64,000 nt of DNA from an uncultured Candidatus Rokubacteria bacterium (GCA_963762145.1 CAVXJS010000009.1:1-64000), one strand, 5' to 3'; positions 33,306 through 63,686 are shown, numbered from the stretch's first letter. A program made the numbers and translations. The notes: generated by a model from the sequence alone, not told the origin.

Positions 33306-34466
33306 CACTCTCCCCCGGACATCGGCGCGCGCTCCGCGACCCGGGCGCCGGCGCCGACCTTCGCGTCGGCGAACCAGTCCATGAGCGCCGCGACCCCGGT
33401 CATGATCCCGATGCCGACCGCGGAGACCGCGAGCTGCATGAAGACGCGGCCGAACGACTCGTTGAGCACCAGGTGCCCCATCACCGCGAGCAGGATCCCG
33501 AGACAGAAGATGTGCAGCGAGTGGCGGCCGCAGATGACGAACGGCCACGCGACCCGGCCGGCCAGGAACCGCGCTCGAGGCGCGACCAGCTTCGCGACCA
33601 GCACGGCCAGCGCGAGCACGCTGACGAAGCGAAACAGGCCGAGATCCTCCTTGCTCAGGAACGGCCACAGGAGCTTGCTGCTGGCCAGCGCGGGGATCGC
33701 GTAGTACAGCCCGTGCAGCGTCCAGCTGAAGCGGATCACGAATGCGACCAGCGCGAAGCCCGCGGCCAGCCGGAACAGCCACCGGCGGTCGAGCCAGGGC
33801 AGCCCATCGCGGGTTCCTCGCCACCCGAGCCACGCTCCCGAGGAAGAACAGCGCCTGCCAGCCGAACGGATTGAAGGCCCAGACCCGGTCCGGACCGGGA
33901 TAGGCCGAGAGCGCGATCCGCGAGTCGATCTGGACCGCCAGCCACAACCCGAGCGAGGCGGTGAGCACGACCCACGGCCAGAACCGGAACCCGGCCAGCG
34001 CGAAGGGGAGGGCGGCCAGCAGCACGATGTAGAGCGGGAGGATGTCCATGTAGGCCGGCTGGAACTGCAGGGTCAGCGCCTTGACCACCGCCACGCCCGG
34101 ATCCTTCAGGAAGTCGGCGGCCTGGGACTCCTCGGCGTAGAGCGAGATGTTCAGGGCTTCGACCGTGTACGCCATCATCGCCATGAACACCATGAACAGG
34201 AACACGTGCGCGACGTAGAGCTGCCACAACCGCTGGCCGACGCGCAGCGCCGCGATCAGGAAGCCCTGCCGCTCCATGGCGCGCCCGTACACCATGCCCG
34301 CGGTGTACCCGGAGATGAGGATGAACACCTCCGCCGCGTCGCCGAACATCACGGACTGGAGCGTGAACTGGGAAACCAAGTTGTCCGGGAGATGATCGAC
34401 GAAGATGCAGAAGAGAGCGAGGCCGCGGAAGAAGTCGAGCCGCAGGTCGCGTCCCGCTTCCGTCAA
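33305..34466 (-). CDS. opgC: OpgC-domain acyltransferase, frameshifted near 33838
   Basis: RDLRLDFFRGLAL, DAAEVF..ISGY, DILPLYI, FNPFGWQ; the second frame continues CGRHSLHIFCLG; TTG start after GGGAGG. Confidence 0.85.
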
Positions 34467-34600
34467 GGAGCCCCTCCCACCCGGCGGATCGCCAACCTGC
34501 AGTCCACGATGTGCATTCCGATCGTACAGACCTCCGCGTCGCTGCGTCAAGCGCCGGCCGCCGGGGCCTTCCCAGGCGTGCCATACTGCAGAGCACACCG

Positions 34601-35662
34601 ATGCCCATCCCGACCGAGCCCATCGGCAGCATTCCGAGAACGCCCGAGCTCCTCCAGGCCCTCACCGCGAAGGACTGCGACGACCCCGGCCTGGCCGCCC
34701 TGTACGATCAGGCGGTTCGCGACACCGTCGCCCGGTTCGAAGCGGTCGGCTCCCCGGTCGTCACGGACGGCGAGCAGCGCAAGTATCACAACTTCTGGAC
34801 CTACCCGGTGCACGGGCTTGCCAACACCGCGCCCGACGGCTTCGTGATCCCGTTCGCGGCTGGCCACACCCGCCGCATGCTGCGCCTGACCGCCGGTCCG
34901 TTCCGGTACAAACGCTACGCGGACGGGTTCCTGGAGCACGCGCAGCGGTTCGCGACGGTGCCGGTGAAGCAGGCGATCATCTCTCCGTCCGCGCTCAGCC
35001 TGATGTATCCCGCCGAGGGAATCCCGGGCTACTCTCGCGAGCGATTCATCGAGGACCTGCTGAACGAGCACGAGACCGAGATTCGCCGCTGCCTCGACAA
35101 GGGCGCGGCCAAGGTCCAGATCGACTTCACCGAGGGGCGGCTCGCGATGAAGCTCGATCCGAGCGGCAACCTGCTCAACAGCTTCATCGACCTGAACAAC
35201 CTGGGGCTGGCGCGATTCTCCGCGCCGGAGCGCGCGCGCATCGGGGTGCATACCTGCCCGGGAGGCGATCGCGATTCGACCCACAGCGCCGAGGTGGACT
35301 ACGGAGAGATGCTCCCGAGCCTGTTCGAGCTGAAGGCGGGGAACTTCTACGTCGCGCTCGCGGGCGAGCCGGACCGCCGGCGCGTCCTGAAGATCATCCG
35401 GCAGTACCGGAAGCCGGAGCAGCGGGTCTTCGTCGGAGTGACCGCGCCGATCGACCCGCGGGTGGAGACGCCGGAGGAGGTGCGGGACTCGATCCTCGAA
35501 GCGGCCAGCTACATTCCGCTCGATCGGCTCGGGACCACCGACGACTGTGGGTTCTCGCCGTTCAGCGACGACACCTCGACGAGCCGCGACACCGCCTTCG
35601 AGAAGATCCGCGCGCGCGTGCTCGGGACCGCGCAGGCCGCCGAGTTCCTGGGAGCCGCCTGA
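34601..35662 (+). CDS. Cobalamin-independent methionine synthase II family (MetE catalytic-domain-like)
   Basis: IGSIPR, TDGEQRK, VQID, GVHTCPG Zn motif, TDDCGF. Confidence 0.85.
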   Translation: MPIPTEPIGSIPRTPELLQALTAKDCDDPGLAALYDQAVRDTVARFEAVGSPVVTDGEQRKYHNFWTYPVHGLANTAPDGFVIPFAAGHTRRMLRLTAGPFRYKRYADGFLEHAQRFATVPVKQAIISPSALSLMYPAEGIPGYSRERFIEDLLNEHETEIRRCLDKGAAKVQIDFTEGRLAMKLDPSGNLLNSFIDLNNLGLARFSAPERARIGVHTCPGGDRDSTHSAEVDYGEMLPSLFELKAGNFYVALAGEPDRRRVLKIIRQYRKPEQRVFVGVTAPIDPRVETPEEVRDSILEAASYIPLDRLGTTDDCGFSPFSDDTSTSRDTAFEKIRARVLGTAQAAEFLGAA

Positions 35663-37401
35663 TGGCGGAGCCGGACGAGACCCTCAGCGAAGAGCAGCTC
35701 CTCCGGTCGGTCGCCATGCAGAATGCCCAGAGCATCCTGCTGGCGCGCCGGCGGGCCGAGCAGGAGCTGCTGAGCGCCAAGGAAGCGCTCGAGCTCAGCA
35801 CGCAGGAGCTCGCCCGCTCGCTGGCCCTGATGGGCGCGACCCTGCAGGCGACCTGGGACGGGATCCTGGTGACGGACGAGGCCGGCCGCCCCACCGCCTT
35901 CAACGAGCCGTTCGCCGAGATGTGGCGCCTGCCCCAGGACATCGCCGGCGCGATGGATCGGCTCCAGGCCCACGTGGCGGATCAGATCGCGGACCGGCAG
36001 GCCTATCTCGATCGTATCGCCCACATCCAGGCCACCGCACCGTCGGACAGCCACGACACGCTGGAGCTCGCGGACGGGCGGGTGTTCGAGGGGTTCTCCC
36101 GGACCCAGACCGTGGGCGGCCGCCCCGTCGGACGGGTGTGGACGTTCCGGGACATCACCGAGCACCGGCGGGCCGCCGAGGAGCGCCGCCATCTCCTGGA
36201 AGGCGAGCAGTTCGCCCGCGGCGAGGCGGAGCGCGCCAACTCGATGAAGGACGCGTTCCTGGCCACCGTGTCGCACGAGCTCCGGACCCCGCTCAACGCG
36301 ATTCTCGGCTGGGCGCACCTGCTCCGGACCGGCTCGATGAGCGAGGCGCAGATCCACCGCGGGATCGAGGTCATCGAGCGAAACGCGCGGGCTCAAAGCC
36401 AGCTCATCGAGGACCTCCTCGACATGAGCCGCATCGTCTCCGGCAAGATGCGGCTCGACATCCAATCGGTCGATCCGGGCGCGTTCATCGAGGCGGCGAT
36501 CGAGACGGTGCGGCCGGCCGCGGAGGCCAAGGGCGTCCGGCTCAGCACCCTGCTGGATCCGGGGGCCGGCCCGGTCAACGGCGATCCGAGCCGGCTGCAG
36601 CAGGTGGTCTCGAATCTGCTCTCCAACGCCATCAAGTTCACCGCGCGGGACGGCCGGATCCAGGTGGTGCTGGAGCGCGTGAACTCGCACATCGAGATCG
36701 CGGTGGCCGACACCGGGGTCGGGATCAAGCCCGAGTTCCTCCCCCACGTGTTCGACCGCTTCCGGCAAGACACGGCCGCCCCGGCGCGCTCCGCCACCGG
36801 TCTGGGGCTGGGGCTCTCGATCGTGAAGCACCTGGTCGAGCTGCACGGCGGCTCGGTGCGCGCGATCAGCGCCGGCGAGGGGCACGGCGCGACCTTCACG
36901 GTGTGCCTCCCGCTGACGGCGGTGCAACGGGACGGCGAGCCCGGCCGCCGACTGCACCCCCGGGGCATGCCGGGGAGCGCGCCGCTCTTCCGGCCGCCCG
37001 ACCTGTCCGGCATCAAGGTTCTCGTGGTCGACGATCAGCCGGATGCCCGAGACATGATCAGGCGCGTGCTGGAGGACTGCGAGGCCGACGTGACGACCGC
37101 CGCCTCGGCCGCGGAGGCCGTCCACGCGGTGGAGGCGGGACGGCCCGACGTGCTCGTGAGCGACATCGGCATGCCGGACGTGGACGGCTACGAGCTGCTG
37201 CGACGCATCCGGGCCCTCGGCTCGCCCTCCGGAGGCCACCTGCCCGCCATCGCGCTCACCGCCTTCGCGCGCTCCGAGGACCGGACCCGCGCGCTGCGGG
37301 CCGGCTTCCTGGCCCACGTGGCGAAGCCGGTGGAGCCCTCCGAGCTGCTGGCCACGGTCGCCAGCATGGTGGGCCGCGCCGGCGAGCGGCTCGCCGACTA
37401 G
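35662..37401 (+). CDS. Hybrid sensor histidine kinase (PAS-HisKA-HATPase-REC)
   Basis: SHELRTPLNAI, NLLSNAIKFT, DTGVGI, GLGLGL, VVDD...SDIGMP...KP. Confidence 0.93.
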   Translation: MAEPDETLSEEQLLRSVAMQNAQSILLARRRAEQELLSAKEALELSTQELARSLALMGATLQATWDGILVTDEAGRPTAFNEPFAEMWRLPQDIAGAMDRLQAHVADQIADRQAYLDRIAHIQATAPSDSHDTLELADGRVFEGFSRTQTVGGRPVGRVWTFRDITEHRRAAEERRHLLEGEQFARGEAERANSMKDAFLATVSHELRTPLNAILGWAHLLRTGSMSEAQIHRGIEVIERNARAQSQLIEDLLDMSRIVSGKMRLDIQSVDPGAFIEAAIETVRPAAEAKGVRLSTLLDPGAGPVNGDPSRLQQVVSNLLSNAIKFTARDGRIQVVLERVNSHIEIAVADTGVGIKPEFLPHVFDRFRQDTAAPARSATGLGLGLSIVKHLVELHGGSVRAISAGEGHGATFTVCLPLTAVQRDGEPGRRLHPRGMPGSAPLFRPPDLSGIKVLVVDDQPDARDMIRRVLEDCEADVTTAASAAEAVHAVEAGRPDVLVSDIGMPDVDGYELLRRIRALGSPSGGHLPAIALTAFARSEDRTRALRAGFLAHVAKPVEPSELLATVASMVGRAGERLAD

Positions 37402-37778
37402 GCCTGGGCGTGTCGGCGCACGACCCCGCACAGCATCATCGGGTCGAGCGGCTTCTCCAGTAGCTCCACGAATCCTTCGGCCAGCAGCTCCTCCCGCCGG
37501 CCCTGGAACGCGGTGATCGCGATGGCCGGAATGTGGAGGCCCTTCGTTGCCGCGACCGTCCTCACTTCCCGGATCAACTCGAGGCCGTCGTCGGGCATCG
37601 CGATGTCGGTGACCAGCACGTGCGGGCGAAGGGTCTCGAGGATGCGCTTGGCCTTCTCGGCGGATTCGGCGGCGGTGACCAGCGCGCCGCAGTATTCGAG
37701 GACCATCCGGAGGACCTCGCGCGAGTCGTCGGTGTCCTCGACGATGAGTACGTGCACGCCGGTCAGATCCCCGTCCAT
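37398..37778 (-). CDS. Stand-alone response regulator receiver domain
   Basis: LIVED, TDIAMP, AITA, EKP. Confidence 0.88.
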   Translation of the reverse strand: MDGDLTGVHVLIVEDTDDSREVLRMVLEYCGALVTAAESAEKAKRILETLRPHVLVTDIAMPDDGLELIREVRTVAATKGLHIPAIAITAFQGRREELLAEGFVELLEKPLDPMMLCGVVRRHAQA

Positions 37779-37927
37779 CGCGTTGCCCCCCTGGGTCCTC
37801 CGCGATACCAGCCTACACCGCGACCGGAGCGGGCTCAACCCGAGTCGCCGCTTCCCGACCTGGAAAAGATTACCGGACCGACACGAAGGGCGTCGGCCCA
37901 AGAGCGCGTGGCATGGGAGCGCCCCGG

Positions 37928-37943
37928 TGGCACTCGCCGTGCA
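37928..37943 (+). promoter_or_regulatory. Sigma54 promoter of the small lipoprotein
   Basis: TGGCACTCGCCGTGCA. Confidence 0.6.
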
Positions 37944-37968
37944 CGACAGCCATCCGAGGAGAACACCC

Positions 37969-38112
37969 ATGAGGCTCGTGATGGTCTGTGCGGTAGCGGC
38001 CATGCTCCTGGCCGGATGCGCGAAGAGAGATATGGACGAGTGCCGGAAGGGCGACCGGAGCCGCTGTCCGGGCGAGGCATCTCGCTCCATCGAGGTGTCA
38101 CGGCGGTCGTAG
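37969..38112 (+). CDS. Small lipoprotein (47 aa)
   Basis: GAGGAG RBS; lipobox LLAGC; two further Cys. Confidence 0.65.
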   Translation: MRLVMVCAVAAMLLAGCAKRDMDECRKGDRSRCPGEASRSIEVSRRS

Positions 38113-38207
38113 CCGGAACGCTCCTTGCGGAAGGGCTCCGTCGGAGGGAGGATGCTGGGCGTGCTGGCGACCGGCTGCGCGAACCCTCAACGAGGGAGGA
38201 GATCGCC

Positions 38208-38948
38208 ATGACCACCCGCAGGGACGCGCACTGCGCGGTCCCCGAGGCGCTGGCCCTGATGAACCTGAAGCTCGGCCCGCCGGGGACGGCTCTGCCTCCA
38301 CTGCTCCACATGGCCACGCAGGCCTCCGATCGCCTGCGCGCAATGGACGAGCAGGGCATCGACGGGCTTCGGGGCGCCGGCATCGGCGGCAGCGTCAACG
38401 GGGAGGAGATCAGCGATCCGAAGTTCCACCCGTTCTGGGCCAAGGCCGAGCAGCTCGGCGTGCTGGTCTTCATCCATCCGCAGGGCGGGGGCGCTCCGGC
38501 GGAGCTGGCCAAGCGGTTCAAGGGCAATGGCTATCTCGACAACGTGATCGGCAATCCGCTCGAGACCACCATCGCGCTCTCCCACCTCATCTTCGAGGGC
38601 ACGCTCGACCGGTTCCCCGGTCTCAAGATCTGCGCCGCGCACGCCGGCGGGTACCTGCCCTCGTACCTCGGGCGCTCCGATCGCGGATGCCCGACTCGCC
38701 CCTCCGCCTGCCCGGGCGGCACCTACGGGCCGATCAAGCGGAAGCCGTCCGAGTACCTGAAGGGCGAGGGGGTGCGGCACCTCGCCGCCGAGGTGGGCGC
38801 AGGCCAGTTGATGGTCGGCACCGACTTTCCGTATCCGTGGACGACGACGGCGGTGGACGACATCCTGGCCGCGCCGGGCGTGAGCGACGCCGACAAGGTG
38901 GCCATGCTGGGCGGCAACGCGATGAAGCTGCTCGGGATCGGGGCCTAG
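38208..38948 (+). pseudogene. Amidohydrolase_2 (ACMSD-like) copy with three internal in-frame deletions
   Basis: FIHPQG, IGNPLETTIALSHLIFEG, AHAGG, GTDFP; lacks segments present in the adjacent paralogue. Confidence 0.75.
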
Positions 38949-38950
38949 CC

Positions 38951-39971
38951 GTGGCCGACGCGGCGTTCGTCTCCTGCGGCGGGGCCGCGCGCGCCGCAAG
39001 GCGCGGCGGCGAGAGGTGGTGGTGAGCGGCAAGCGCGTGAAGACGGTGGACGTGCACGCGCACTGCGCGGTGCCCGCGGCGATGGCGCTGGTGGGGCGAG
39101 CGCTCGAGACGGAGGCCCTCCTCATGTCCGAGCACGGCGGACCGCATCCGCGCGATGGACGAGCAGGGCATCGACGTCGAGGCGCTCAGCATCAACCCCT
39201 ACTGGTACGCGGCGGACCGGGACGTCGCGGCGAAGCTGATCCAGCTCCAGAACGAGACGCTCGCCGAGATCTGCGCGGCCCAGCCCGACCGGTTCGTCGC
39301 GTTCGCGACGCGTGGCGCTGCAGCATCCGGATCTCGCCGCCGAGCAGCTCGAGCAGGGCGTCAAGAGATACGGCCTGCGCGGCGCCGGCCTCGGCGGCAG
39401 CGTCGACGGCCTCGAGCTGAGCGACCCGAAGTTTCATCCGTTCTGGGCCAAGGCCGAGCAGCTCGGCGTCCTCGTGTTCATCCACCCGCAGGGCACGGCC
39501 GAGCTGGAGCGGACGGGCCGGCTCGGGGGCAACGGGCTGCTCACCAACACCATCGGCAATCCGCTCGAGACGACGATCGCGCTGTCGCACCTCATCTTCG
39601 AGGGCACCCTCGACCGCTTCCCCGGCCTCAAGATCTGCGCCGCCCACGGCGGCGGCTACCTGCCCTCGTACGCCGCGCGCTCCAACGCGGTGCAGACGAC
39701 CTTCCCCCACCGCATGACCGGGACGCTCAAGAAGAAGCCGACGGAGTACCTGCGCCAGCTCTACTTCGACTCGATCGTCTTCACGCCCGAGGCGCTGCGC
39801 CACCTCGCCGCGGAGACGGGCCCGGGCCAGATCGTCATGGGCACCGACTATCCGTTCCCGTGGACGAGCACGTCGGTGGACCACATCCTGAGCACGCCGG
39901 GCCTGAGCGACGCCGACAAGGTCGCGATGCTGGGCGGCACCGCGCAGGCGCTGCTGGGGATCAAGAGCTAG
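38951..39971 (+). CDS. Amidohydrolase_2 (ACMSD-like), frameshifted near 39000, 39128 and 39311
   Basis: VDVHAH, MDEQGIDVEALSINP, FIHPQG, AHGGG, LYFDS, GTDYPFPW spread across frames. Confidence 0.8.
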
Positions 39972-39982
39972 CAGTCGAGCCG

Positions 39983-40135
39983 TCAGGTCCCCCGGAGCTT
40001 GTTCTTCTGCCGCGCCGTGGTCCGCCGGCTCACGAGACCCCGGGGTGTCTCCTGCGCTCGCTTCGTCGCGGCCACGCTGCGCTGGGCGGTCCGCTTCCGT
40101 TTCGTCGCCTTCTGGGTGGGATCCGGCTTCCTCAT
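39983..40135 (-). CDS. Small highly basic protein (50 aa)
   Basis: AGGAGG RBS; MRKPDPTQKATKRKRTAQRS...; 13 bp after the upstream gene. Confidence 0.5.
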   Translation of the reverse strand: MRKPDPTQKATKRKRTAQRSVAATKRAQETPRGLVSRRTTARQKNKLRGT

Positions 40136-40148
40136 CACGTCCTCCTGG

Positions 40149-40415
40149 TCAGGCGTGGGCCGGCGGAGGCTGGATCCGCCTCGTCTCCTCACGCCACATC
40201 TGGAAGCAATCCACGTGAACCAGCACGTACGCTCCCCTGTCGCTCTGGACCTGGTACTCGTTGCTCTCGTTCCGGATCGGTGTCCCGCACACGTCACACG
40301 GCCGTCCGGTCCCGCGGCGGACCGTCGAGCCGCCGTACGCCCGGAACAAGCGGCCGTCCGCCAGGCGCTCGCGGATGCTCTGCCGCAGCTCCTCGTGGGT
40401 AGCGTCCGGACTCAT
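40149..40415 (-). CDS. Small CxxC...HxxC putative zinc-binding protein (family copy 1)
   Basis: LRQSIRERLADGRLF...GTGRPCDVC...VHVDCFQMWREE. Confidence 0.8.
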   Translation of the reverse strand: MSPDATHEELRQSIRERLADGRLFRAYGGSTVRRGTGRPCDVCGTPIRNESNEYQVQSDRGAYVLVHVDCFQMWREETRRIQPPPAHA

Positions 40416-40427
40416 GGGATGATCAAA

Positions 40428-40443
40428 GGCAAACTCCGTGCCG
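40428..40443 (-). promoter_or_regulatory. Sigma54 promoter directly upstream of copy 1
   Basis: Minus strand CGGCACGGAGTTTGCC; predicted TSS nearly coincides with the ATG, and there is no SD. Confidence 0.6.
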
Positions 40444-40546
40444 TGGCCTTCGTGCGCTCGTCGCTCACGGACGGCCCGGGAATCGAGCGACGCGTGGCCC
40501 CGGCAACCAATTGGCCACCTCCCGGTAAGAAGCTGTTACCGGGTAA

Positions 40547-40918
40547 CTACCGCTCATTCAATAGCACGCTCACCACGCGCCGGACGACGTCCAGGCTGAA
40601 CGGCTTCTCCAGCATCGGCTCGGTGGTTCCGCGGAGGAAGTCCGCATAGTCCCCCCCTCCGACGTTGCCGGTCATGAAGATCACCCGCGGTATCGGAGAG
40701 GTGGGGCGCATGGCGCGGAGCGCGTCGTACAGGGCGGGGCCGTCGAGGCCCGGCATCCGGAGGTCGCTGAGGATGAGGTCGTAGTGGTTCTGGCTGAGCA
40801 GCTCCACGGCTTCGATCCCGTTCCGGGCCGTATCCACCGCGCGCCCGGGCTGGCTCAGGACGGTCGAGAGCAGCTCCCGAAGATTGTCGTCGTCATCAAC
40901 GACCAAGATGCGCTTCAT
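40547..40918 (-). CDS. Stand-alone receiver domain
   Basis: ILVVDD, SDLRMPGLDG, FMTG, EKPF. Confidence 0.9.
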   Translation of the reverse strand: MKRILVVDDDDNLRELLSTVLSQPGRAVDTARNGIEAVELLSQNHYDLILSDLRMPGLDGPALYDALRAMRPTSPIPRVIFMTGNVGGGDYADFLRGTTEPMLEKPFSLDVVRRVVSVLLNER

Positions 40919-40927
40919 GTCATTCGG

Positions 40928-41185
40928 TCAGGCCTTGTTGCGCTCGAACTCCCACGCCGCGAAGCAGCGGAGATGAACGTGGAACTTGTCGAGCCCGGGC
41001 GCGCCGCCATCGTGCGCAAACTGAATCTCGAACTCGAGCTCGTCCTTGGTCACGGGACGGCCCCAGACGCTGCACTCAGCCCCGACACCGGGACCGCCCC
41101 ACGTGCGGTCGGGGGCGCGGGCCGGCATCTTGCCGCTCTTGATGGCGGCGCGGGCCTGCTCCCGCAGACGAGTTTCATCCGGCAT
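40928..41185 (-). CDS. Small CxxC...HxxC family copy 2 (second Cys codon is TGG/Trp)
   Basis: LREQARAAIKSGKMP...WGGPGVGAECSVW...HLRCFAAWEFE. Confidence 0.8.
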   Translation of the reverse strand: MPDETRLREQARAAIKSGKMPARAPDRTWGGPGVGAECSVWGRPVTKDELEFEIQFAHDGGAPGLDKFHVHLRCFAAWEFERNKA

Positions 41186-41289
41186 GGCTGGCTTCCTTTG
41201 GGGGCTTTGCCTTCGGAACAGGAGCGGAGCCAGATGCCAAGGGGATGGACGCCCGCTGCGTCAACCATTGAGCCCGCTGGAAGGCGACC

Positions 41290-41736
41290 TCAGCCTACCA
41301 CGGACTCTTGCCCAGGAGGGCATGGGTCGGGACCCGGCCGAGAAGGGGAATGGCTCCCTCCGCCAACCCGGCGCATCACGTCGTGGATGGCGGGCAGCAG
41401 GGCGCTGCTGATGACGTGCTTGTGGACGAACGCGTCGGCCCCGCTCTCCGAGGCCCTGACCCGGTAGGCGTCCTCGGTAAACGAGCTCATGAGGATGATT
41501 CGCGTTCGCGGCAGCTCTCGGCGGAGGCATTTCGTGAGCTCGATCCCGTTGAGCCCTGGCATCACCAGGTCCGTGATCACGATGTCAGGCCGCTCTCGGC
41601 GGATCACCGCCAGCGCCTCCTCGCCATCGGTCCCCTCCCCGACGACCCGCACGGTGTCGGCCAGTGGCTCGAGCAACGTGCGGACGACCAATCGGTAGTC
41701 TGCCGAATCGTCGGCCACGACAATGGTCCAGGCCAC
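41290..41736 (-). CDS. Stand-alone receiver domain (NarL-like REC, no HTH)
   Basis: VVADD, ITDLVMPGLNG, ILMSS, FVHK. Confidence 0.88.
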   Translation of the reverse strand: MAWTIVVADDSADYRLVVRTLLEPLADTVRVVGEGTDGEEALAVIRRERPDIVITDLVMPGLNGIELTKCLRRELPRTRIILMSSFTEDAYRVRASESGADAFVHKHVISSALLPAIHDVMRRVGGGSHSPSRPGPDPCPPGQESVVG

Positions 41737-41771
41737 GAGTGCCCCCCTGGATAGCGATCCTGCGCGGACGG

Positions 41772-41787
41772 TGCATGCAATGTGCCG
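41772..41787 (-). promoter_or_regulatory. Sigma54 promoter upstream of the REC gene
   Basis: Minus strand CGGCACATTGCATGCA. Confidence 0.55.
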
Positions 41788-41889
41788 CATAGGATTGGTC
41801 GCGGCTGCCGCGCGTTTCCCAGGAGTCCGGGGACCAAGTACGAAGATGCTACCTCCTCCGATCGCCGGGAGGGAAGGAAGTACCGAGAG

Positions 41890-42138
41890 TCAGGGCCGTC
41901 CGCAAGAGGGCCACATCTCGGCCCAGACGTCGTAGCATCGGCGATGGAAGGGCAGGGTCCCGCCCCCCGGCAGGTCGCATTCGACCTCGACATCGTGGGC
42001 CTCGATGGGTTCGTCACATGCGGAGCAGGTGGCGCCGCGCCCCGGCCCGAACCACGTCATCCGGCAGTGTTCCTTCGGCAGTTGGCCGGCCAGGATCTTT
42101 CCCCGGATCTGCTCCGTCAGCCTTTGTGCCTCTGTCAT
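41890..42138 (-). CDS. Small CxxC...HxxC family copy 3
   Basis: IRGKILAGQLP...WFGPGRGATCSAC...FHRRCYDVW; GAGGAG RBS. Confidence 0.82.
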   Translation of the reverse strand: MTEAQRLTEQIRGKILAGQLPKEHCRMTWFGPGRGATCSACDEPIEAHDVEVECDLPGGGTLPFHRRCYDVWAEMWPSCGRP

Positions 42139-42148
42139 GGTGCGCTCC

Positions 42149-42586
42149 TCAGAGGTAAGCCGAACCGGAAGGGCATTCGCGCGAGGGCTCTGGGGCGGGC
42201 CAGCTGCCTCCAGAGAGGCGCCGTCGGATCACGTCGCGGACTGCCGGCAGCAGGCCATCGAACAGCACGCGCTTGCTCACGAATGTATCCGCCCCGCTAT
42301 CGGAAGCCATGAACTGATACGCCTCCTCGGTGGTCGAGCTGATGAGGACCACCTGGGTCGCCGGCAGCTCCTGGCGGATGCGCCGCGTCAGCTCGACGCC
42401 GTCGAGATCGGGCATGATCAGATCCGTGATCACGATATCCGGCCGCTCTCGGCGGGCGAGGGCGAGGCCCTCGATACCGTTGGAAGCATAGCCGACGATG
42501 GTGATGTCGGACGCGGGCTGCAGGATGTGGGCAATGAACCCGTGGTATTGAACGTCGTCATCGATGACCACGATGGTGAAGGACAT
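42149..42586 (-). CDS. Stand-alone receiver domain (NarL-like REC, no HTH)
   Basis: VVIDD, ITDLIMPDLDG, LISS, FVSK; GGAGG RBS. Confidence 0.88.
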   Translation of the reverse strand: MSFTIVVIDDDVQYHGFIAHILQPASDITIVGYASNGIEGLALARRERPDIVITDLIMPDLDGVELTRRIRQELPATQVVLISSTTEEAYQFMASDSGADTFVSKRVLFDGLLPAVRDVIRRRLSGGSWPAPEPSRECPSGSAYL

Positions 42587-42615
42587 GGATCCTCCGTCCG
42601 ATTTGACACGGGAAG

Positions 42616-42891
42616 TCAGCGAGTCTCGGTTCCACTCGACGCATCGTCGGCGCACGTTGTCAGTTCCATCACCCAGAGCTCATAGCATGAACGATGGAAC
42701 CGGAGGGTTCCACCCCCTGAAAGGTCGCACTCGACTTCCAGGTCGGCAGGTGACACGGACCGCTCGCACGCCACGCAGGTATTGCCCGACCCTGGGCCAA
42801 ACCAGGTCATGCGGCAGGTCGCCTTCGGCAGAGCGCCTGAGCGAATCTTCTGCCGGATGGCCTCCCGCAGCTGCTCCTCGTCGTCGACCAT
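42616..42891 (-). CDS. Small CxxC...HxxC family copy 4
   Basis: IRQKIRSGALP...WFGPGSGNTCVAC...FHRSCYELW; GGAGG RBS. Confidence 0.82.
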   Translation of the reverse strand: MVDDEEQLREAIRQKIRSGALPKATCRMTWFGPGSGNTCVACERSVSPADLEVECDLSGGGTLRFHRSCYELWVMELTTCADDASSGTETR

Positions 42892-43000
42892 CGACGGCCT
42901 CCAGCTTCAGGGAGATCGTGCTCGGACGCGCGAGTGTAGCACGCCCGACCTGGCCGCGGACCCGGTGACGTGCGCACGCCTGTGGTAGCCTCCGGAGTAA

Positions 43001-43993
43001 ATGGACCGCCGTACGTTCCTCTCCGGCGTCACCCTCGGCCTGCTCGCCGCACCGCTCGCCGCCGAGGCACAGCCGGCCGAGAAAGTGTGGCGGATCGGCG
43101 TGATTGGTTTCGCTCCCCCGACCGGCGATATGGCCGGACCTGAACCGCGGTATGCATACATCAAAGCCCTGCTGGATGGATTGCGCGAGCGCGGCTATGT
43201 GTATGGCCGGAATTTCGTGACCGAGCCCCGAGGAGCCGCAGGCAGGCCCGAGCGCCTACCCGGCCTTGTCGACGAGCTGGTCCGCCTGCAGGTGGACGTG
43301 ATTGTCCCCGTCGGCGCCGCGCTACCCGCGCTCAAGCAGGCCACGTCGACGATTCCCATCGTCGTTCCTGGCTCTGGCGATCCCGTGGGGTCTGGGTACG
43401 CAAGGAGTCTGGCTCACCCGGGGGGTAACTTCACGGGGTTGAGCTTCCAGTTCCTGGATCTGGTGGTGAAACGGCTCGATCTGCTCAAGGAGTCGCTGCC
43501 GATGGCCGGGACCGTAGCGGTGATATGGGATCGGACTTCCCCGGAGGTTTGGGAAGTGCTCGAGAGAGCCGCCCGTGAGCGACGCTGGAAGCTGCTGTCA
43601 CTCCCGATTCGGGATGTCGGCGAGGCCGAGGATGTGGTCAGGTCGGCGGCGAAGGCTCGGGCGAGCGGGCTGCTCGTGACTGCCGGTGTAGCGTTCGATC
43701 CGCATCCTCGACGAATCGTGGAGCCGGTCGCCAAGTACCGGCTGCCCGCCATGTACCATCAGCGCTCCTACGTTCAAGCGGGCGGACTCATGTCGTACGG
43801 CCCGGATCTCCTCGCGATCTGGCGCGCGGCGGCGGTCTTCGTCGACAAGATCCTCAAGGGCGCGAACCCCGGCGATCTCCCCTTCGAGCAGCCCACCAAG
43901 ATCGACCTGGTGATCAACCTCAAGACCGCCAGAGCCCTCGAGCTGACGATCCCCCAAATGCTGCTGCGGCGCGCCGATCAGGTGATCGAATGA
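43001..43993 (+). CDS. ABC_sub_bind family substrate-binding protein with Tat-like signal (orphan)
   Basis: MDRRTFL...AEAQ, ATSTIPIV, SLAHPGGNFTG, GGLMSYGP, VDKILKGANPGDLPFEQPT, INLKTA. Confidence 0.9.
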   Translation: MDRRTFLSGVTLGLLAAPLAAEAQPAEKVWRIGVIGFAPPTGDMAGPEPRYAYIKALLDGLRERGYVYGRNFVTEPRGAAGRPERLPGLVDELVRLQVDVIVPVGAALPALKQATSTIPIVVPGSGDPVGSGYARSLAHPGGNFTGLSFQFLDLVVKRLDLLKESLPMAGTVAVIWDRTSPEVWEVLERAARERRWKLLSLPIRDVGEAEDVVRSAAKARASGLLVTAGVAFDPHPRRIVEPVAKYRLPAMYHQRSYVQAGGLMSYGPDLLAIWRAAAVFVDKILKGANPGDLPFEQPTKIDLVINLKTARALELTIPQMLLRRADQVIE

Positions 43994-54786: not shown

Positions 54787-55068
54787 TCACCCCGTCGTAG
54801 CCGATCGGCGCCTCAGTTTGACCCTGCGCTTGTCTGTTTCGGCCCGCCACGCATGATGGCAGCCTGCGTGGGCGGACACTGATCTATCAGGAGCACGGAC
54901 GTCGTATTGGATCTGATTGGCGTGAATTTTGACCTGGCAGACGATGCAGGGCTTGCCAACCCCGCCGCCGACCCATACGGGACCGCCTTCTAGAATCCAC
55001 AGCCGACCGTTCGCCAAGCCAGTAAGCACCATCTCTAGAATGGATCGCCCTTCACCCGGTAGATCCAT
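54787..55068 (-). CDS. Small CxxC...HxxC family copy 5
   Basis: GLANGRLW...VWVGGGVGKPCIVC...AHAGCHHAWRAE. Confidence 0.75.
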   Translation of the reverse strand: MDLPGEGRSILEMVLTGLANGRLWILEGGPVWVGGGVGKPCIVCQVKIHANQIQYDVRAPDRSVSAHAGCHHAWRAETDKRRVKLRRRSATTG

Positions 55069-55224: not shown

Positions 55225-56127
55225 CTATCGCAGGATGTCAGCGGTGGAAGTGAGCAAGACGCAGGTGCAGCCGGTCTCGCTCCAGACGCGCCGATCCGTG
55301 CTCCCCGCGTCGGCCCGATGGTAGTCGCCCGGATGCACCTTCTTGTCGTCGATCCAGAGCTCCCCATCCAGCAGGTGAAGCTCTTCGAGGCCGGCGTGGG
55401 TGTGCGGCGGGTAGACGGCGCCCGGCGCCAGCCGGACCAACATGCTGACGCGCTCCCGCTCATGGTCCCGCGCCAGCAGCATGTACGAGATTCCCGGCCC
55501 CGCCTCCTGCCAGTCGGGTGAGGCAGCCGGTTCAGGCATGAACGTGGCCGAGCCTCGCTCGCCGACGATCCGCTGAACCAGGCGCCCCCACCGCGCTGGC
55601 GTCGGAGGCGGCAGTTGATCCATGGGTCCGTTGACCCATGCTTCAATCGGCCGTCGGCTCGGCCGCTCGGTCCGCATCAGATCGATTGCCCGCGCCCGAG
55701 CCTGATTCAGGACCCAGCCGATGACCGATGCCTTCTCGGGATCGTACGTCCACGCCCGCCGCCAGACGTCATAGAAGACCTCTACCGTCAGCTCGTCGGC
55801 CATTTCCCGCTCATGGGTAATCCGCAACATGAGCGTGAAGACGATCCGATGCATCCTCTCGTAGAGGGTGGTCAAGGCCTCCACGTTCCCTGCCGCCATC
55901 GCCCGCACGAGAGCGCCCCATTCGCGCTCCGGAGCAGGCGGCGGGATGGGCTTGCCAAAGAGCAAGTCGCTGAGGGTCGTGTTGCGCGGGAACTCTACGT
56001 CGAATAGCTTCCGGCAGGACTCGCACCAGCGGGTTACCCGTCGTCCAGCGTAGATCGTCGCAAACGATTCCGGGAGCGAGTTCTGGGCGCCGCAGTGGGT
56101 GCAGGAGACGTATCGCCCGTCCATCAT
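55225..56127 (-). CDS. Zinc ribbon + ECF sigma region 2 + ChrR-like cupin fusion (no sigma region 4)
   Basis: CTHC...CESC; AAGNVEALTTLYER...EVFYDVWRRA...ARARAIDLMR; RLAPGAVYPPHTHAGLEELHLLDG...PGDY. Confidence 0.8.
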   Translation of the reverse strand: MMDGRYVSCTHCGAQNSLPESFATIYAGRRVTRWCESCRKLFDVEFPRNTTLSDLLFGKPIPPPAPEREWGALVRAMAAGNVEALTTLYERMHRIVFTLMLRITHEREMADELTVEVFYDVWRRAWTYDPEKASVIGWVLNQARARAIDLMRTERPSRRPIEAWVNGPMDQLPPPTPARWGRLVQRIVGERGSATFMPEPAASPDWQEAGPGISYMLLARDHERERVSMLVRLAPGAVYPPHTHAGLEELHLLDGELWIDDKKVHPGDYHRADAGSTDRRVWSETGCTCVLLTSTADILR

Positions 56128-56193: not shown

Positions 56194-58119
56194 TCAGCGC
56201 ACGGGCAGCGTGAAGGTGAAGGTGGACCCCTGGCCTAACTCGCTCTCGACCCACATCCGGCCGTCGTGCAGCTCCACGAACTTCTTCGCCAGGGTTAACC
56301 CAAGCCCGGTGCCTTCCAACTTCCGCGCATCATCGGTCCCCACCTGGCGGAACTCCTCGAAGATGGCCGCCTGGTCCTCAGGAGCGATCCCGATGCCGGT
56401 GTCGGAGACGGCGATCTCGACCGCGCCGTCCGTGAGCCCGGCCTTGAGGCTGATCCGGCCTCCCTCGGGGGTGAACTTGACCGCATTCGAGAGGAGGTTG
56501 AGCAGGACCTGCTTGACCTTGCGCTCGTCCCCCACGAGCTCCCCCAGTCGCGGGTCCAGATCGAGCGCCAGGGTGATGCCGTGGCGGGCGGCACGCTCCT
56601 TGACCAGGGTGACGGCATTCTCCAGCGCGGTTGGCAGGTGGAATGGGACCGGGGCCAGCTCCATGCGCCCGGCCTCGATCTTGGAGAGATCGAGGATGTC
56701 ATTGATGAGGGACAGGAGATGCTGTCCCGAGGCGTAGACGTCCTTGAGGTACTCGTCCTGCTTGGCGTTGAGCTCGCCGAACATGCGCTGGAGCAGCACC
56801 TCGGAGAACCCGATGATCGCGTTCAGCGGCGTGCGCAGCTCGTGGGACATGTTGGCGAGGAACTCCGACTTGTGACGGCTGGCCGCTTCCAGCTGCCGGC
56901 TCTTGTCCGCAATCTCGTGGAACAGTCGGGCGTTCTGGATGGCCAGAACCGACTGCGTCGCGAAGGTGCGCAGCAGCTCGATGGTCTCGGGGGGGAAGTC
57001 GCCGGGGCGATTGCGCGTGACGCCGAGACAGCCGATCAGCCGGCCCTCCCGCACCATCGGCACCGCGAGGATGGCCCGGATGCCGGACTCGATGAGGTTG
57101 TCCCGCAAGCGACTCTCGTAGGCGCCCGGCACCGCAATGTCGGAGACCTGCACCGGCTCGAGGGTGAGGGCGGTCCGCCCGAGCACGCCCTCTCCCTTAC
57201 GGAACCGCGTGCCGCGGCGAGCCCGGGCGAGCGCACCGCCGGTCTCGGCGGCCGCCCGCTGGGTGAACTCCTCGGCGACCTCGTCGTACTCGAACACCAC
57301 GCCCCCGTCCATCCCCGAGATCTGCACCGCGCGCGCCACGATCGTCGTCAGCACCGTCTCGAGATCGAGCGTGGAGCTGACCGCGCGGCCGACCTCGCCC
57401 AGGGCGGTCAGCTGCTCCACCGAGCGCGTGAGCGCGCCGGTCCGCGCCTCGAGCTCGGTGAAGAGGCGCACGTTCTCGATCGCGATCACCGCCTGGTCGG
57501 CAAAGGTCTGAAGCAGCTCGATCTGCCTCTGCGAGAACACTCCAGCCTCGGCCCCCGTGACCACGACCGCCCCGATCGGCGTGCTGTCCAGCAACATCGG
57601 CACTGCGAGGACGCTCAAGTAGTCGGCAGCCTTCGCAAGGGCCTCGAGCCTGTACTCGGGATCCTCGCGGATATCCGGGATGTAGACGATGCTCCGGCTC
57701 AGAATCGCGCGGGCGGTACCTCCACCCTGGCTCGGAGGCATCGGGTAGCTCTGCCGAACGACCTCGACGGCTCCGGGCCTTAGACTGTGGGCCGCCGCGA
57801 TATGGATGAGCTGACCGTCGAACCTGTAGACCCAACCGGTCGTTGCCCGGCACAGGTCCATCGCCTTGACCGCGATGGCATCGAAGACCGGCTGGACATC
57901 GGTCTGGAAGCGGCTGATGACCCGAAGGACTTCGCTGGTCGCCGTCTGCTGCTCCAGGGCTTCCACCTCGCGCTTCTGCGCCTCCGCCTCACGCTTCTGT
58001 GCTTCCGCGAGGCGCTTCTCAAGGTCGTGAACCCTGGAGCGGCTGCGTGTCCGTGCCCCGCGGACGACCGGGCGCTTGCCTTCGCCCTTCGCCTTTCCAG
58101 GCTTTGCACCCCGACCCAT
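56194..58119 (-). CDS. Sensor histidine kinase (GAF-GAF-HisKA-HATPase)
   Basis: EQQTATSEVL, LLQTFADQAVIAIENVRLF, ANMSHELRTPLNAIIGF, NAVKFT, GTGLGL. Confidence 0.94.
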   Translation of the reverse strand: MGRGAKPGKAKGEGKRPVVRGARTRSRSRVHDLEKRLAEAQKREAEAQKREVEALEQQTATSEVLRVISRFQTDVQPVFDAIAVKAMDLCRATTGWVYRFDGQLIHIAAAHSLRPGAVEVVRQSYPMPPSQGGGTARAILSRSIVYIPDIREDPEYRLEALAKAADYLSVLAVPMLLDSTPIGAVVVTGAEAGVFSQRQIELLQTFADQAVIAIENVRLFTELEARTGALTRSVEQLTALGEVGRAVSSTLDLETVLTTIVARAVQISGMDGGVVFEYDEVAEEFTQRAAAETGGALARARRGTRFRKGEGVLGRTALTLEPVQVSDIAVPGAYESRLRDNLIESGIRAILAVPMVREGRLIGCLGVTRNRPGDFPPETIELLRTFATQSVLAIQNARLFHEIADKSRQLEAASRHKSEFLANMSHELRTPLNAIIGFSEVLLQRMFGELNAKQDEYLKDVYASGQHLLSLINDILDLSKIEAGRMELAPVPFHLPTALENAVTLVKERAARHGITLALDLDPRLGELVGDERKVKQVLLNLLSNAVKFTPEGGRISLKAGLTDGAVEIAVSDTGIGIAPEDQAAIFEEFRQVGTDDARKLEGTGLGLTLAKKFVELHDGRMWVESELGQGSTFTFTLPVR

Positions 58120-59066: not shown

Positions 59067-59354
59067 CTACTCCCCGGGACCGCTCTTTGGGAGTCTTGCG
59101 GTGGCGGCATCTCGACCGGGTGCACAGCGCTCCGCGTCCCACAGGTGCAGGCACCCCACATGAAACTGAATGCCCTTACCGCCCGTCGTGCTGACACCTT
59201 CCATGACGAACTGCGTCTTGGTGATGATTTCCTCGCAGGCGTCACACGTCTCGCCGTTGCCAGCACCACCCCAGAGGCGCGGGATACTGTTCTGCGGCAA
59301 ACGACCGTCAGCGAGCTTGTCGCGAATGAGGCGACGAAGGGTTTCCTGCTCCAT
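59067..59354 (-). CDS. Small CxxC...HxxC family copy 6
   Basis: AAAGGAGG RBS; IRDKLADGRLP...WGGAGNGETCDAC...FHVGCLHLWDAE. Confidence 0.85.
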   Translation of the reverse strand: MEQETLRRLIRDKLADGRLPQNSIPRLWGGAGNGETCDACEEIITKTQFVMEGVSTTGGKGIQFHVGCLHLWDAERCAPGRDAATARLPKSGPGE

Positions 59355-61993: not shown

Positions 61994-62392
61994 ATGGCCA
62001 TGAAGGTGCTGGTGGTCGAGGACAACGACGATGTCCGGGCGATAGTGGGCGCGGTCCTACGCATGGACCCAGGGATCACCCTGTTTGAAGCCGCTAATGG
62101 CAGCGACGCTGTCGACATCGCAGGCCGCGAGCGGCCTCAAGTCGTGGTCACGGACATCATGATGCCGGAGATGGACGGCCTCGAAGCGACGAAACGCATC
62201 AAGCTCGCTTGGCCAGAAACAAAGGTGATCGTGGTGACCGCGTTCACCCAGGGCGCGTACCGGGCAGCGGCATCGGAGAGGGGAGCAGATGCGTTTGTTG
62301 ACAAGGTGGACGTGGGTAGAGTGCTGCTCCCGCTAATCCACGCACTTACCGGGACTGCCTCCCCGCCTCCGCATACCGGACATAGTCAATGA
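61994..62392 (+). CDS. Stand-alone receiver domain (NarL-like REC)
   Basis: LVVED, TDIMMPEMDG, VVTA, FVDK. Confidence 0.9.
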   Translation: MAMKVLVVEDNDDVRAIVGAVLRMDPGITLFEAANGSDAVDIAGRERPQVVVTDIMMPEMDGLEATKRIKLAWPETKVIVVTAFTQGAYRAAASERGADAFVDKVDVGRVLLPLIHALTGTASPPPHTGHSQ

Positions 62393-62905: not shown

Positions 62906-63199
62906 CTACCAGGCGCGGGGTGGCCCCGTCGTGCTCCTTCTTCGCGGTGGCGGTTGCCTCAGAGCCGCAGATTCCTCGCGCCAGAGCGTGTAGCAATCAG
63001 GATGCGCCAGACCGAAGACGCCCGGGCCTTCGACTTCCCGCTCTAACGTGGGCGAGTCTATCGGTTGGTTGCAGACGTGGCATGGTCGGCCAGTCCCGCG
63101 ACGTATCGAGGAGATGCCAGTCGCGAGGAACAGGGCGTGGGTAGACAGCTGGGCACGGACCAGACTCCTCAGCTCTTCGCGGAGCGCTAGAGCTATCAT
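62906..63199 (-). CDS. Small CxxC...HxxC family copy 7
   Basis: LRSLVRAQL...RRGTGRPCHVC...AHPDCYTLWREE; most similar to copy 1. Confidence 0.82.
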   Translation of the reverse strand: MIALALREELRSLVRAQLSTHALFLATGISSIRRGTGRPCHVCNQPIDSPTLEREVEGPGVFGLAHPDCYTLWREESAALRQPPPRRRSTTGPPRAW

Positions 63200-63360
63200 G
63201 ACTGTCCCGCCTTACCCCTCTCGAACTCCCACGCCGCGAAGCACCGAATGTGGACGTGGAACTTGTCGAGGCCGGGATTGCTGCCGTCGTGGCTACCAGG
63301 GAGCTTACCGTTCTGGATGGCATCTTTGGCTTGCTCGCGTAGACGTGCTTCGTCCGGCAC
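63196..63360 (-). CDS. Small CxxC...HxxC family copy 8, internally deleted (54 aa; not in ORF track)
   Basis: GGGAG RBS + GTG; MPDEARLREQAKDAIQNGKLPGSHDGSNPGLDKFHVHIRCFAAWEFERGKAGQS; its stop overlaps the copy 7 start. Confidence 0.75.
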   Translation of the reverse strand: MPDEARLREQAKDAIQNGKLPGSHDGSNPGLDKFHVHIRCFAAWEFERGKAGQS

Positions 63361-63686
63361 GGCTGGCTCCCTCTCGGCGCTGAACAGGTCGTAGCGGAGC
63401 CAGATCCACGCGGGTGGGACGTCACGGTGCGTCTACCAGCAACCCTATGGAAGGCATCTGAAGCGTACCACCAACCGAAGAGGACTGTTCAGGGCGAGCG
63501 AGAGCGCGTCAACGAGCGTGAAGTCACGGCCGCCCGGTCGCGCGTGGGACGTCAGCGCCCGAGCCCCGTCCGCGACGGACGGCGCGCTCGATGTTCATGC
63601 GGGTCAGACCGAGATCCGCGATCATGCCAAGGCTACCTGGCTTGAGCGTCAACTCGGCGAGAACGCCGCTCTCATTGATCGGCGCG

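Follow-up and report, generated by a model that had tools for sequence, protein, structure and literature searches.

What do small zinc-finger-like proteins do when their genes alternate with genes for receivers that carry no output domain? The question is raised by a 2.9-kb block of eight minus-strand open reading frames (ORFs) in an uncultured Candidatus Rokubacteria bacterium (GCA_963762145.1 CAVXJS010000009.1:1-64000). The window, that is, the whole stretch of DNA analyzed, covers the initial 64 kb of contig C9 in an assembly of 6.26 Mb with ~70% GC (genome code G000), and its named close protein homologues carry Methylomirabilota or Rokubacteria labels. The block, referred to here as the array, encodes four members of a small protein family (Zn1 to Zn4), three stand-alone receivers (REC-A to REC-C) and a short basic ORF, and is flanked by an amidohydrolase gene (39312-39971, plus strand) and an ABC substrate-binding gene (43001-43993, plus strand). 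The answer that we favor, with a probability of roughly 0.55, is that Zn3/Zn4-type proteins bind REC-A/B-type receivers one to one, as a detached output or connector. In order of transcription the eight ORFs are:

42616-42891, minus strand: Zn4, 91 amino acids (aa), predicted CCHC zinc-finger protein of the Zn3/Zn4 clade (family hidden Markov model (HMM) E 2.1e-39), without a Pfam or NCBIfam family.
42149-42586, minus strand: REC-A, 145-aa stand-alone receiver with a Pro/Ser/Gly-rich tail (PF00072 E 6.7e-22).
41890-42138, minus strand: Zn3, 82-aa predicted CCHC zinc-finger protein, paralogue of Zn4.
41290-41736, minus strand: REC-B, stand-alone receiver, paralogue of REC-A (PF00072 E 4.7e-24).
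40928-41185, minus strand: Zn2, 85 aa, from a clade mostly not linked to receivers, with its second knuckle Cys replaced by Trp.
40547-40918, minus strand: REC-C, 123-aa stand-alone receiver of CpdR/NtrC-like type (PF00072 E 3.5e-21).
40149-40415, minus strand: Zn1, 88 aa, Zn1/Zn6 clade.
39983-40135, minus strand: basic ORF, 50 aa, isoelectric point (pI) 12.0, an orphan and putatively coding, with AGGAGG, a strong Shine-Dalgarno motif, 7 nt upstream, 13 bp after Zn1.

An original prediction made from this DNA had proposed exactly this co-oriented order, Zn4-REC-Zn3-REC-Zn2-REC-Zn1 followed by a basic ORF of 50 aa, and all eight ORFs were found. It had also stated that several gaps are only 9-29 bp and that Zn3/Zn4 and the two receivers at 41290 and 42149 are close paralogue pairs. 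The gaps from Zn4 to the basic ORF measure 29, 10, 153, 104, 9, 131 and 13 bp, the short ones being those of 29, 10, 9 and 13 bp, and the pairs are 54% (Zn3 and Zn4) and 51% (REC-A and REC-B) identical. Codon-position GC is coding-like in all seven Zn and REC frames, with GC at third positions (GC3) of 0.74-0.90 and GC1 above GC2. The start of REC-A was set at the ATG giving MSFTIVV, the longest ORF reaching 42655, and the GTG start of REC-B at 41736 was inferred from orthologues, the longest ORF reaching 41790. The basic ORF has a GC3 of 0.88, but its GC1 (0.59) lies below its GC2 (0.63), and searches of the window's genome and of all fetched loci returned no homologue of it, only low-complexity noise.

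Phosphorylation-dependent switching of the alpha4-beta5-alpha5 face is established receiver biology, and the three receivers of the array keep the phospho-acceptor residues. All three match PF00072 well above its cut-off of 30.2 bits (REC-A 78.2, REC-B 85.1 and REC-C 75.9 bits; E 3.5e-21 to 4.7e-24). In line with the original prediction, the acidic pocket, phospho-Asp, Ser/Thr and Lys can be read in each of them: D9-D11, D55, S83 and K105 in REC-A, the motifs ADDS, ITDL, LMSS and FVHK in REC-B, and DDDD, LSDL, FMTG and LEKP in REC-C. The absence of an output domain is likewise borne out, as PF00072 is the only Pfam family that passes threshold in any of the three, and the tail that follows the receiver in REC-A and REC-B consists of only ~25 low-complexity residues. 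REC-A and REC-B resemble receivers of NarL/UvrY type without the helix-turn-helix domain. Membership in the NarL/FixJ or CheY/CpdR equivalogs of NCBIfam was rejected for the receivers (best 62-69 bits against cut-offs of 180-714); the best NCBIfam matches of REC-C are AtoC and CpdR, both under cut-off.

For Zn1 to Zn4 no Pfam or NCBIfam family reaches threshold, and the original statement that they belong to no named family is in agreement with Pfam, NCBIfam, the ESM Atlas and the names of homologues. The best Pfam match is Prok-RING_1 (PF14446), which was rejected as an assignment because Zn3 reaches 18.1 bits (E 0.0027) and Zn4 15.0 bits (E 0.024) against a cut-off of 29.1, and Zn1 and Zn2 do not match. 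LIM (PF00412) was rejected because the window proteins give no LIM match and have only one CxxC...HxxC finger where two fingers with eight ligands are needed, although a single LIM-protein finger (E 0.002) was the sole match in a profile search of PDB sequences. The zf-HC2 family (PF13490) was also set aside, as no Zn protein matches it and the ligand order is CxxC...HxxC, not HxxxCxxC. In an alignment of 71 sequences the family has a signature of its own, running from an N-terminal helix with R..G.L through a G-x-G strand, a CxxC knuckle and a Glu to HxxC...W. H65, C68 and W72 are invariant, and R12, G18, L20, G33, C38, C41 and E53 are kept in at least 90% of the sequences. The CxxC/HxxC pattern originally described thus stands for the family, but in Zn2 the second knuckle Cys (C41) is a Trp.

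An AlphaFold2 model of the Zn protein on this alignment (predicted local distance difference test score (pLDDT) 89.2, predicted template modelling score 0.77) comprises a helix at 3-17, strands at 27-32, 50-55 and 61-65, and a helix at 66-79, and predicts a CCHC treble-clef finger with an extra helix. Taken together, the ligand pattern and the predicted fold suggest that Zn proteins bind zinc. Fold searches returned generic treble-clef matches only, namely PARP-1 fingers, RING, C1 and L24e (Foldseek E of at least 0.15, VIA Z of at most 4.2). These results do not show the fold to be new; the Zn family is an unnamed zinc-finger family. In the Zn3/Zn4 clade, further residues are conserved (H24, C25, C54 and the C-terminal C79, Zn3 numbering), which could provide a second metal-binding site, or a redox-active one, peculiar to the receiver-linked clade.

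The family is large. When 1.84 billion cluster representatives were searched with a profile, 4755 Zn proteins were recovered at E ≤0.001 and 1781 at E ≤1e-10, the 4755 being clusters defined at 50% identity, and many representatives in the public database are tandem Zn-Zn fusions of two domains. All homologues are named 'hypothetical protein' at source except one 'ribosomal protein L24E', ESM Atlas matches are unnamed Methylomirabilota clusters only, and no paper on the family was found in the open-access literature (supplements outside the scope). Zn genes are present in 93 of the 201 Methylomirabilota genomes sampled, a tally that, like the others over these genomes, takes in the unpublished genome G029. 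By coded genome family, matches were found in 80 of 125 genomes of f1, 11 of 16 of f2, 1 of 3 of f9 and 0 of 56 of the other nine. Organism labels on the matches need care: records titled Acidoferrum and Limnocylindria (L117, L118) match G106:C153 and G070:C80, which are placed in the window's genus.

Are Zn genes linked to receivers? The window's genome holds 24 Zn copies, as found with an HMM built from six window copies, and 11 of them lie within 1 kb of a REC domain, compared with 5.2% of 20,000 random intervals; because the copies are clustered, 11/24 amounts to only about 5 of 15 loci. In other genomes we collected ±4 kb around 80 matches, which make up most of the first ~100 of the 150 matches listed, with 275 further matches beyond those 150; this sample leaves out G000 and matches on very short contigs. 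A REC lies within 700 bp at 13 of the 80 loci and of 17 of the 95 Zn domains, against 3.9% of random intervals in the window's genome, a real enrichment of about fourfold. The 136 coding-like ORFs located no more than 400 bp from Zn genes spread over 116 families; their commonest Pfam domain was REC (9), followed by Sigma-70 r4 (4) and r2 (3). All-against-all clustering of flanking ORFs gave the same picture, with REC, found within 4 kb at 25 of the 80 loci, the only group besides the Zn family that recurs widely.

The linkage is unevenly distributed over the Zn tree (FastTree, 117 domains), which has few columns and leaves many forks unresolved. The numbers of members within 700 bp of a REC are:

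Zn3/Zn4 clade: 10 of 16.
Zn2 clade: 3 of 32.
Zn1/Zn6 clade: 2 of 11, both in the window.
Zn5 clade: 2 of 16.
Small C22/C11 clade: 3 of 4, two G000 copies being in convergent orientation.

The receiver enrichment that the original prediction had named as a check therefore stands at 17/95 against 3.9%, but 78 of the 95 foreign domains are unlinked and the signal is concentrated in the Zn3/Zn4 clade. Fusion of Zn proteins to receivers, which it had also raised, found no support: neither a REC nor any other Pfam domain was detected in 10 long representatives or in 13 longer homologues, the search of the latter being weak evidence. Tandem Zn arrays of 2-4 genes were observed at G000:C9:691711-693164 (minus strand) and in L031, L072, L087 and L101; the first four have no receiver among their genes, and in L101 a REC fragment lies 120 bp beyond the last Zn gene.

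Within the Zn3/Zn4 clade, the linkage is mostly to one particular group of receivers. When REC-A and REC-B were compared with all RECs of the window's genome and those of the 80 foreign loci, their best matches were two receivers of L033 and those of L036, L032, L061 and C14:19651, all of them neighbors of Zn3/4-type genes (52-72% identical to REC-A, 60-67% to REC-B); REC-A orthologues located after a Zn gene are 65-72% identical. Receivers beside Zn3/4-clade members of family f2 (L083, L104) belong to other types. The reverse search for REC-A-like genes (E ≤1e-30) found them in 7 of the 201 genomes, in two genera. Eight such matches lie outside G000: five are stand-alone with a Zn gene directly upstream, two are stand-alone with no Zn gene on the retrieved sequence, and one is fused to a sigma-r2/cupin region. 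A related-locus search with a narrower Zn3/Zn4-clade alignment yielded 8 loci, mostly already collected.

The clearest case is L033, from another genus, where the Zn-REC-Zn-REC block recurs with gaps of similar pattern. REC-A is 72% identical to the upstream receiver of L033 and REC-B 67% to the downstream one, and Zn3 is 72% identical to the downstream Zn protein of L033. The conserved gene order and the co-inheritance of the pairs are shown, as are the genes and the Zn family themselves. Because L033 has the block with pairwise orthology of the receivers, the duplicated unit is Zn then REC, as the original prediction of a duplicated Zn+REC unit would have it, and the duplication is older than the split of the two genera. 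The strictly alternating seven-gene module of that prediction survives in part: the first four genes form a conserved unit, but the remainder is a local composite. The genes of the distal half (Zn2, REC-C, Zn1 and the basic ORF) appear to have been added locally, since nothing like these four follows the L033 block and since the closest paralogues of REC-C lack a Zn neighbor, the best of them (69% identical) lying on contig C8, which has no Zn copy. Adjacency is the sole ground on which Zn2 might be paired with REC-C, or Zn1 with a receiver.

Direct contact between the members of a conserved pair is predicted as well. For Zn4 and REC-A, modeled from alignments of 35 and 14 rows, respectively, the complex prediction scored 0.77, compared with 0.00 for the best of 3 controls. 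In a benchmark of 80 solved complexes and 110 mismatched pairs, 58 and 2, respectively, reached that mark, rates that hold only roughly here given the use of our own alignments. At least 63% of contacts were common to three runs, and partner pLDDT was at least 80. On REC-A the predicted interface (residues 86, 91, 94-95, 98-104, 106-107, 110-112, 114-115, 118-119, 121-122 and 125) comprises alpha4, beta5, with F102 at the switch-aromatic position, and alpha5, the face that switches upon receiver phosphorylation according to passages of two papers (PMC2952233, PMC2586830). Zn4 would contribute residues 25-33 (T-C-R-M-T-W-F-G-P), 51, 53 and 56, and residues 67, 70-71, 74 and 78 of its helix. The 25-33 motif separates the receiver-linked clade from others, which read P-R-L-W-G-G-A or S-T-V-R-R-G-T, so that clade conservation and predicted interface coincide. 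Searches of PDB by sequence and fold found no similar complex for the Zn partner, which makes recall of a solved complex unlikely on the Zn side. Zn3 and Zn4 are acidic (pI 5.5 and 4.8), which fits protein binding better than DNA binding.

We next consider how such a system might work. Its core would be a two-gene unit, with a small acidic Zn3/Zn4-clade protein encoded first and a REC-A/B-type stand-alone receiver after it. Tandem duplication before the divergence of two Rokubacteriales-type genera would have produced Zn4/REC-A and Zn3/REC-B, and the unit would later have been extended in the window's genome by Zn2 and Zn1 from other clades, the unrelated REC-C and the orphan basic ORF. Each Zn3/Zn4-type protein presumably folds around one zinc ion, with a second site conceivable, and is predicted to dock on the alpha4-beta5-alpha5 face of the receiver encoded after it, through its first beta-strand (CRMTWFGP) and C-terminal helix. 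By analogy with general receiver biology, phosphorylation of D55 by an unlinked kinase would remodel this face, so that the Zn protein is captured or released. The Zn protein would then serve as a detached output or connector rather than as a DNA binder and, free or bound, might act on a further target, speculatively regulators of ECF sigma/ChrR type (ECF, extracytoplasmic function).

Several observations weigh against one-to-one binding of this kind. Most Zn genes are not near a receiver: 78 of the 95 foreign Zn domains have none within 700 bp, and binding a receiver cannot therefore be the general role of the family; even in the Zn3/Zn4 clade this is true of 6 of 16 members. Orthology is ambiguous on the Zn side, as Zn4 is 68% identical to the downstream Zn protein of L033 and 65% to the upstream one, and across 28 non-independent pairs the identity of the Zn proteins tracks that of the receivers only moderately (r 0.46). 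The REC-A/B clade is confined to two genera, and with so narrow a range recent common ancestry could account for part of the conserved order. The array encodes no histidine kinase, and gaps of 104-153 bp permit separate transcription. Binding is a prediction, covering the single pair Zn4–REC-A, and its specificity is putative. The original proposal that the zinc proteins are outputs, connectors or modulators of the receivers is partly supported: the Zn4–REC-A prediction passed its controls, but the Zn2 clade (3/32) and Zn1/Zn6 (2/11) are normally unlinked.

One-to-one binding would have precedents. Single-domain response regulators that act via partners include CheY (FliM, CheZ), DivK, Spo0F and CpdR, which acts through the zinc-binding domain of ClpX. 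Like these, the array receivers are stand-alone, keep the phospho-acceptor residues and have no output domain, and the predicted partner contact is on the alpha4-beta5-alpha5 face. CpdR/ClpX is the nearest precedent for contact between a receiver and a treble-clef finger, as the partner there is likewise a small treble-clef zinc domain. In contrast, the partner in the array would be a separate protein of 80-90 aa from an unnamed family, encoded directly upstream in a unit that is tandemly duplicated, and the array has no chemotaxis, cell-cycle or protease context; REC-A and REC-B also fall far under the CheY, CpdR and NarL equivalog cut-offs. Passages of two papers on Haloferax volcanii describe small one-domain zinc-finger micro-proteins with many paralogues and mostly unknown function (PMC6562870, PMC11241148). 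These resemble the Zn family as small stand-alone prokaryotic zinc fingers in many paralogues, but are archaeal C(P)XCG C4 fingers without sequence relation to it, and those passages report no receiver link.

We conclude that the Zn family is a new candidate partner family for single-domain receivers, with binding predicted by modeling. The family is undescribed and large, and the conserved unit is narrow in range. Single-domain receivers rank among the commonest response regulators and also among the least understood, as it is seldom known which partners they have. In the Zn family this locus provides a candidate partner encoded beside the receiver, together with a specific interface prediction. 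Confirmed binding would define a new class of receiver effector and, in an abundant soil phylum that is uncultured, assign a role to thousands of small proteins now named 'hypothetical', and side links to ECF sigma/ChrR genes suggest a possible destination of the signal.

Those side links also feed the strongest alternative, in which Zn proteins work on their own as small regulators and have no direct contact with receivers; they might, for instance, modulate ECF sigma/anti-sigma pairs or other proteins in response to zinc or redox state. Adjacency to receivers would then reflect clustering of signaling genes and spread by local tandem duplication. The excess of unlinked domains (78/95), the commonness of receiver-less tandem Zn arrays (L031, L072, L087 and C9:691.7-693.2k), the spread of the 136 neighboring ORFs over 116 families and the receiver-rich genome, with 156 REC domains, all fit this explanation. 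So does a series of genes at 6 of the 80 loci, where a Zn gene of one subclade leads an ECF sigma factor (r2 + r4) and a ChrR-like anti-sigma factor (zf-HC2 + Cupin_7), in six genomes (L070, L081, L095, L102, L108 and L109). It does not readily explain the roughly fourfold receiver enrichment over random, the clade-specific co-inheritance with one REC clade, or a complex prediction that passed its controls. We regard it as a serious contender, although a doubtful one.

The window itself contains a gene related to such systems, next to one of the Zn copies outside the array. In total there are eight Zn copies in the window, the number first reported, of which seven are intact and one, Zn2-like, has an internal deletion. 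The copies outside the array, and the two genes beside Zn8, are:

54787-55068, minus strand: Zn8, family copy shortly after the sigma-r2/cupin gene.
55225-56127, minus strand: sigma-r2/cupin protein, 300 aa, with a CxxC...CxxC zinc ribbon, Sigma70_r2 and a ChrR Cupin_7 domain.
56194-58119, minus strand: GAF-GAF histidine kinase, upstream of the sigma-r2/cupin gene.
59067-59354, minus strand: Zn5, family copy without a REC within 2.5 kb.
62906-63199, minus strand: Zn6, Zn1-type copy, 601 bp from a stand-alone REC (62006-62392, plus strand).
63199-63363, minus strand: deleted Zn2-like copy, in which an internal deletion of ~34 aa removes the whole zinc knuckle.

The sigma-r2/cupin gene, which sits between the GAF histidine kinase and Zn8, encodes neither a sigma r4 nor a zf-HC2 domain. 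Its product looks like a deletion-fusion of an ECF sigma/ChrR anti-sigma pair and is possibly a sigma-mimic regulator. Its paralogue at G000:C9:421432-422631 (= L130:709-1908) carries, where the ribbon would be, a REC that belongs to the REC-A/B clade, and this protein and that of L122 (REC + Sigma70_r2 + ChrR-cupin) are the sole multi-domain relatives of the REC-A/B clade. A chain of associations thus emerges, with Zn beside REC-A/B, REC-A/B fused to sigma-r2/cupin, and Zn beside ECF sigma/ChrR; although circumstantial, it suggests the pathway in which the Zn family acts. Whether Zn proteins are Methylomirabilota-wide connectors that couple phosphorylation of orphan receivers to switches of ECF-sigma/ChrR-type anti-sigma factors is a bolder proposition, and an unlikely one in our estimate.

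Such a connector would amount to a new partner-switching route. PhyR, NepR and sigma-EcfG form a partner switch in which a receiver controls a small partner, as is proposed here, and are the nearest precedent tied to an ECF sigma factor; the REC-A/B clade and a Zn subclade are linked genomically, if circumstantially, to ECF sigma/anti-sigma genes. The differences are that the array receivers have no sigma-like domain, that Zn proteins are zinc fingers and not NepR-like helices, and that the array contains no sigma or anti-sigma gene. A route with PhyR/NepR-like logic but an unrelated zinc-finger partner on the alpha4-beta5-alpha5 face is speculative, and we would give it low odds.

Another explanation holds that Zn proteins are nucleic-acid-binding fingers, supplying in trans the output domain of a split response regulator. 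The PARP finger has the ligand pattern CCHC, which is that of the Zn family, and the best folds include the PARP-type DNA-nick finger (Z 4.2, root-mean-square deviation 4.3 Å over 53 residues) and L24e. Zn6 and Zn8 are basic (pI 9.8 and 9.9), and REC-A/B are NarL/UvrY-like receivers lacking the helix-turn-helix domain. All fold matches are weak, however, with no Z of 5 or more, and fall equally on RING and C1, which are protein or lipid binders; no Pfam DNA-binding family was matched; and the receiver-linked Zn3 and Zn4 are acidic. We consider nucleic-acid binding improbable.

The structural matches can be compared further. Zn proteins share with the first LIM finger and the PARP finger the CxxC...HxxC ligands and a beta-hairpin followed by a helix, and PARP-1 Zn1 and Zn2 match the family at Z 3.8-4.2. 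For PARP-type fingers as a whole the matches are weak (Foldseek E of at least 0.15, template modelling score 0.35-0.53, VIA Z 3.4-4.2, no Pfam match). The family differs in being single-fingered where LIM needs two, in its extra N-terminal helix and conserved W-G-x-G-x-G strand, and in that all its matches remain under family thresholds. Treble-clef geometry is likewise shared with Prok-RING_1 and RING (RING fold matches Z 3-4.1), but Zn proteins have four core ligands, compared with the eight of a cross-brace RING, and no ubiquitin-like context.

Searches of environmental data found near-identical DNA in soil metagenomes, with 77-96% of sampled words present in eight runs that belong to two studies and 25-39% in runs of five further studies. 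RNA evidence was limited to contigs from four RNA-labeled soil runs, in which the parts of the array that are not covered are uninformative. One identical contig of 218 nt (run X19) spans 40067-40284, so that it includes both the stop of Zn1 and the first part of the basic ORF, and one of 170 nt (run X20) spans 41454-41623 within REC-B; the remaining pieces differ at several letters, as relatives would. As DNA carry-over is possible in RNA libraries, these pieces are no proof of transcription or co-transcription and give only a hint of array expression.

The idea that the array is evolutionary debris, recently duplicated and decaying small ORFs without joint function, could appeal to the knuckle Cys lost in Zn2, the deleted Zn2-like copy at 63199-63363, the orphan basic ORF and a distal half not found elsewhere, but is very hard to sustain given open frames with coding-like codon-position GC, ligand columns kept across 71 sequences (H65, C68 and W72 invariant; C38 and C41 at least 90%), a confident fold prediction, a four-gene block conserved across genera and near-identical copies in soil metagenomes of several studies. 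The Trp replacement in Zn2 and the deleted copy suggest birth-and-death turnover within the Zn family.

Scans of the array for regulatory sites were uninformative: they gave 0 promoter-like sites, where shuffled sequence averages 0.2, and a single terminator-like site, which lies on the other strand and for which shuffled sequence averages 1.2. Rfam gave no match at E ≤0.1 over 39800-43200. A hybrid PAS-HisKA-HATPase-REC histidine kinase is encoded 5 kb from the array (34405-37401, plus strand), and a 230-aa protein with a C-terminal REC at 37398-38090 (minus strand), the two lying at distances of 2-5 kb. These two are the nearest possible phosphodonors, and nothing ties them to the array. Just past the end of the array, the adjacent Amidohydro_2-like ORFs at 37533-38948 and 39312-39971 (both plus strand) share near-identical stretches, for example FHPFWAKAEQLGVLVFIHPQG, and look like a local tandem duplication.

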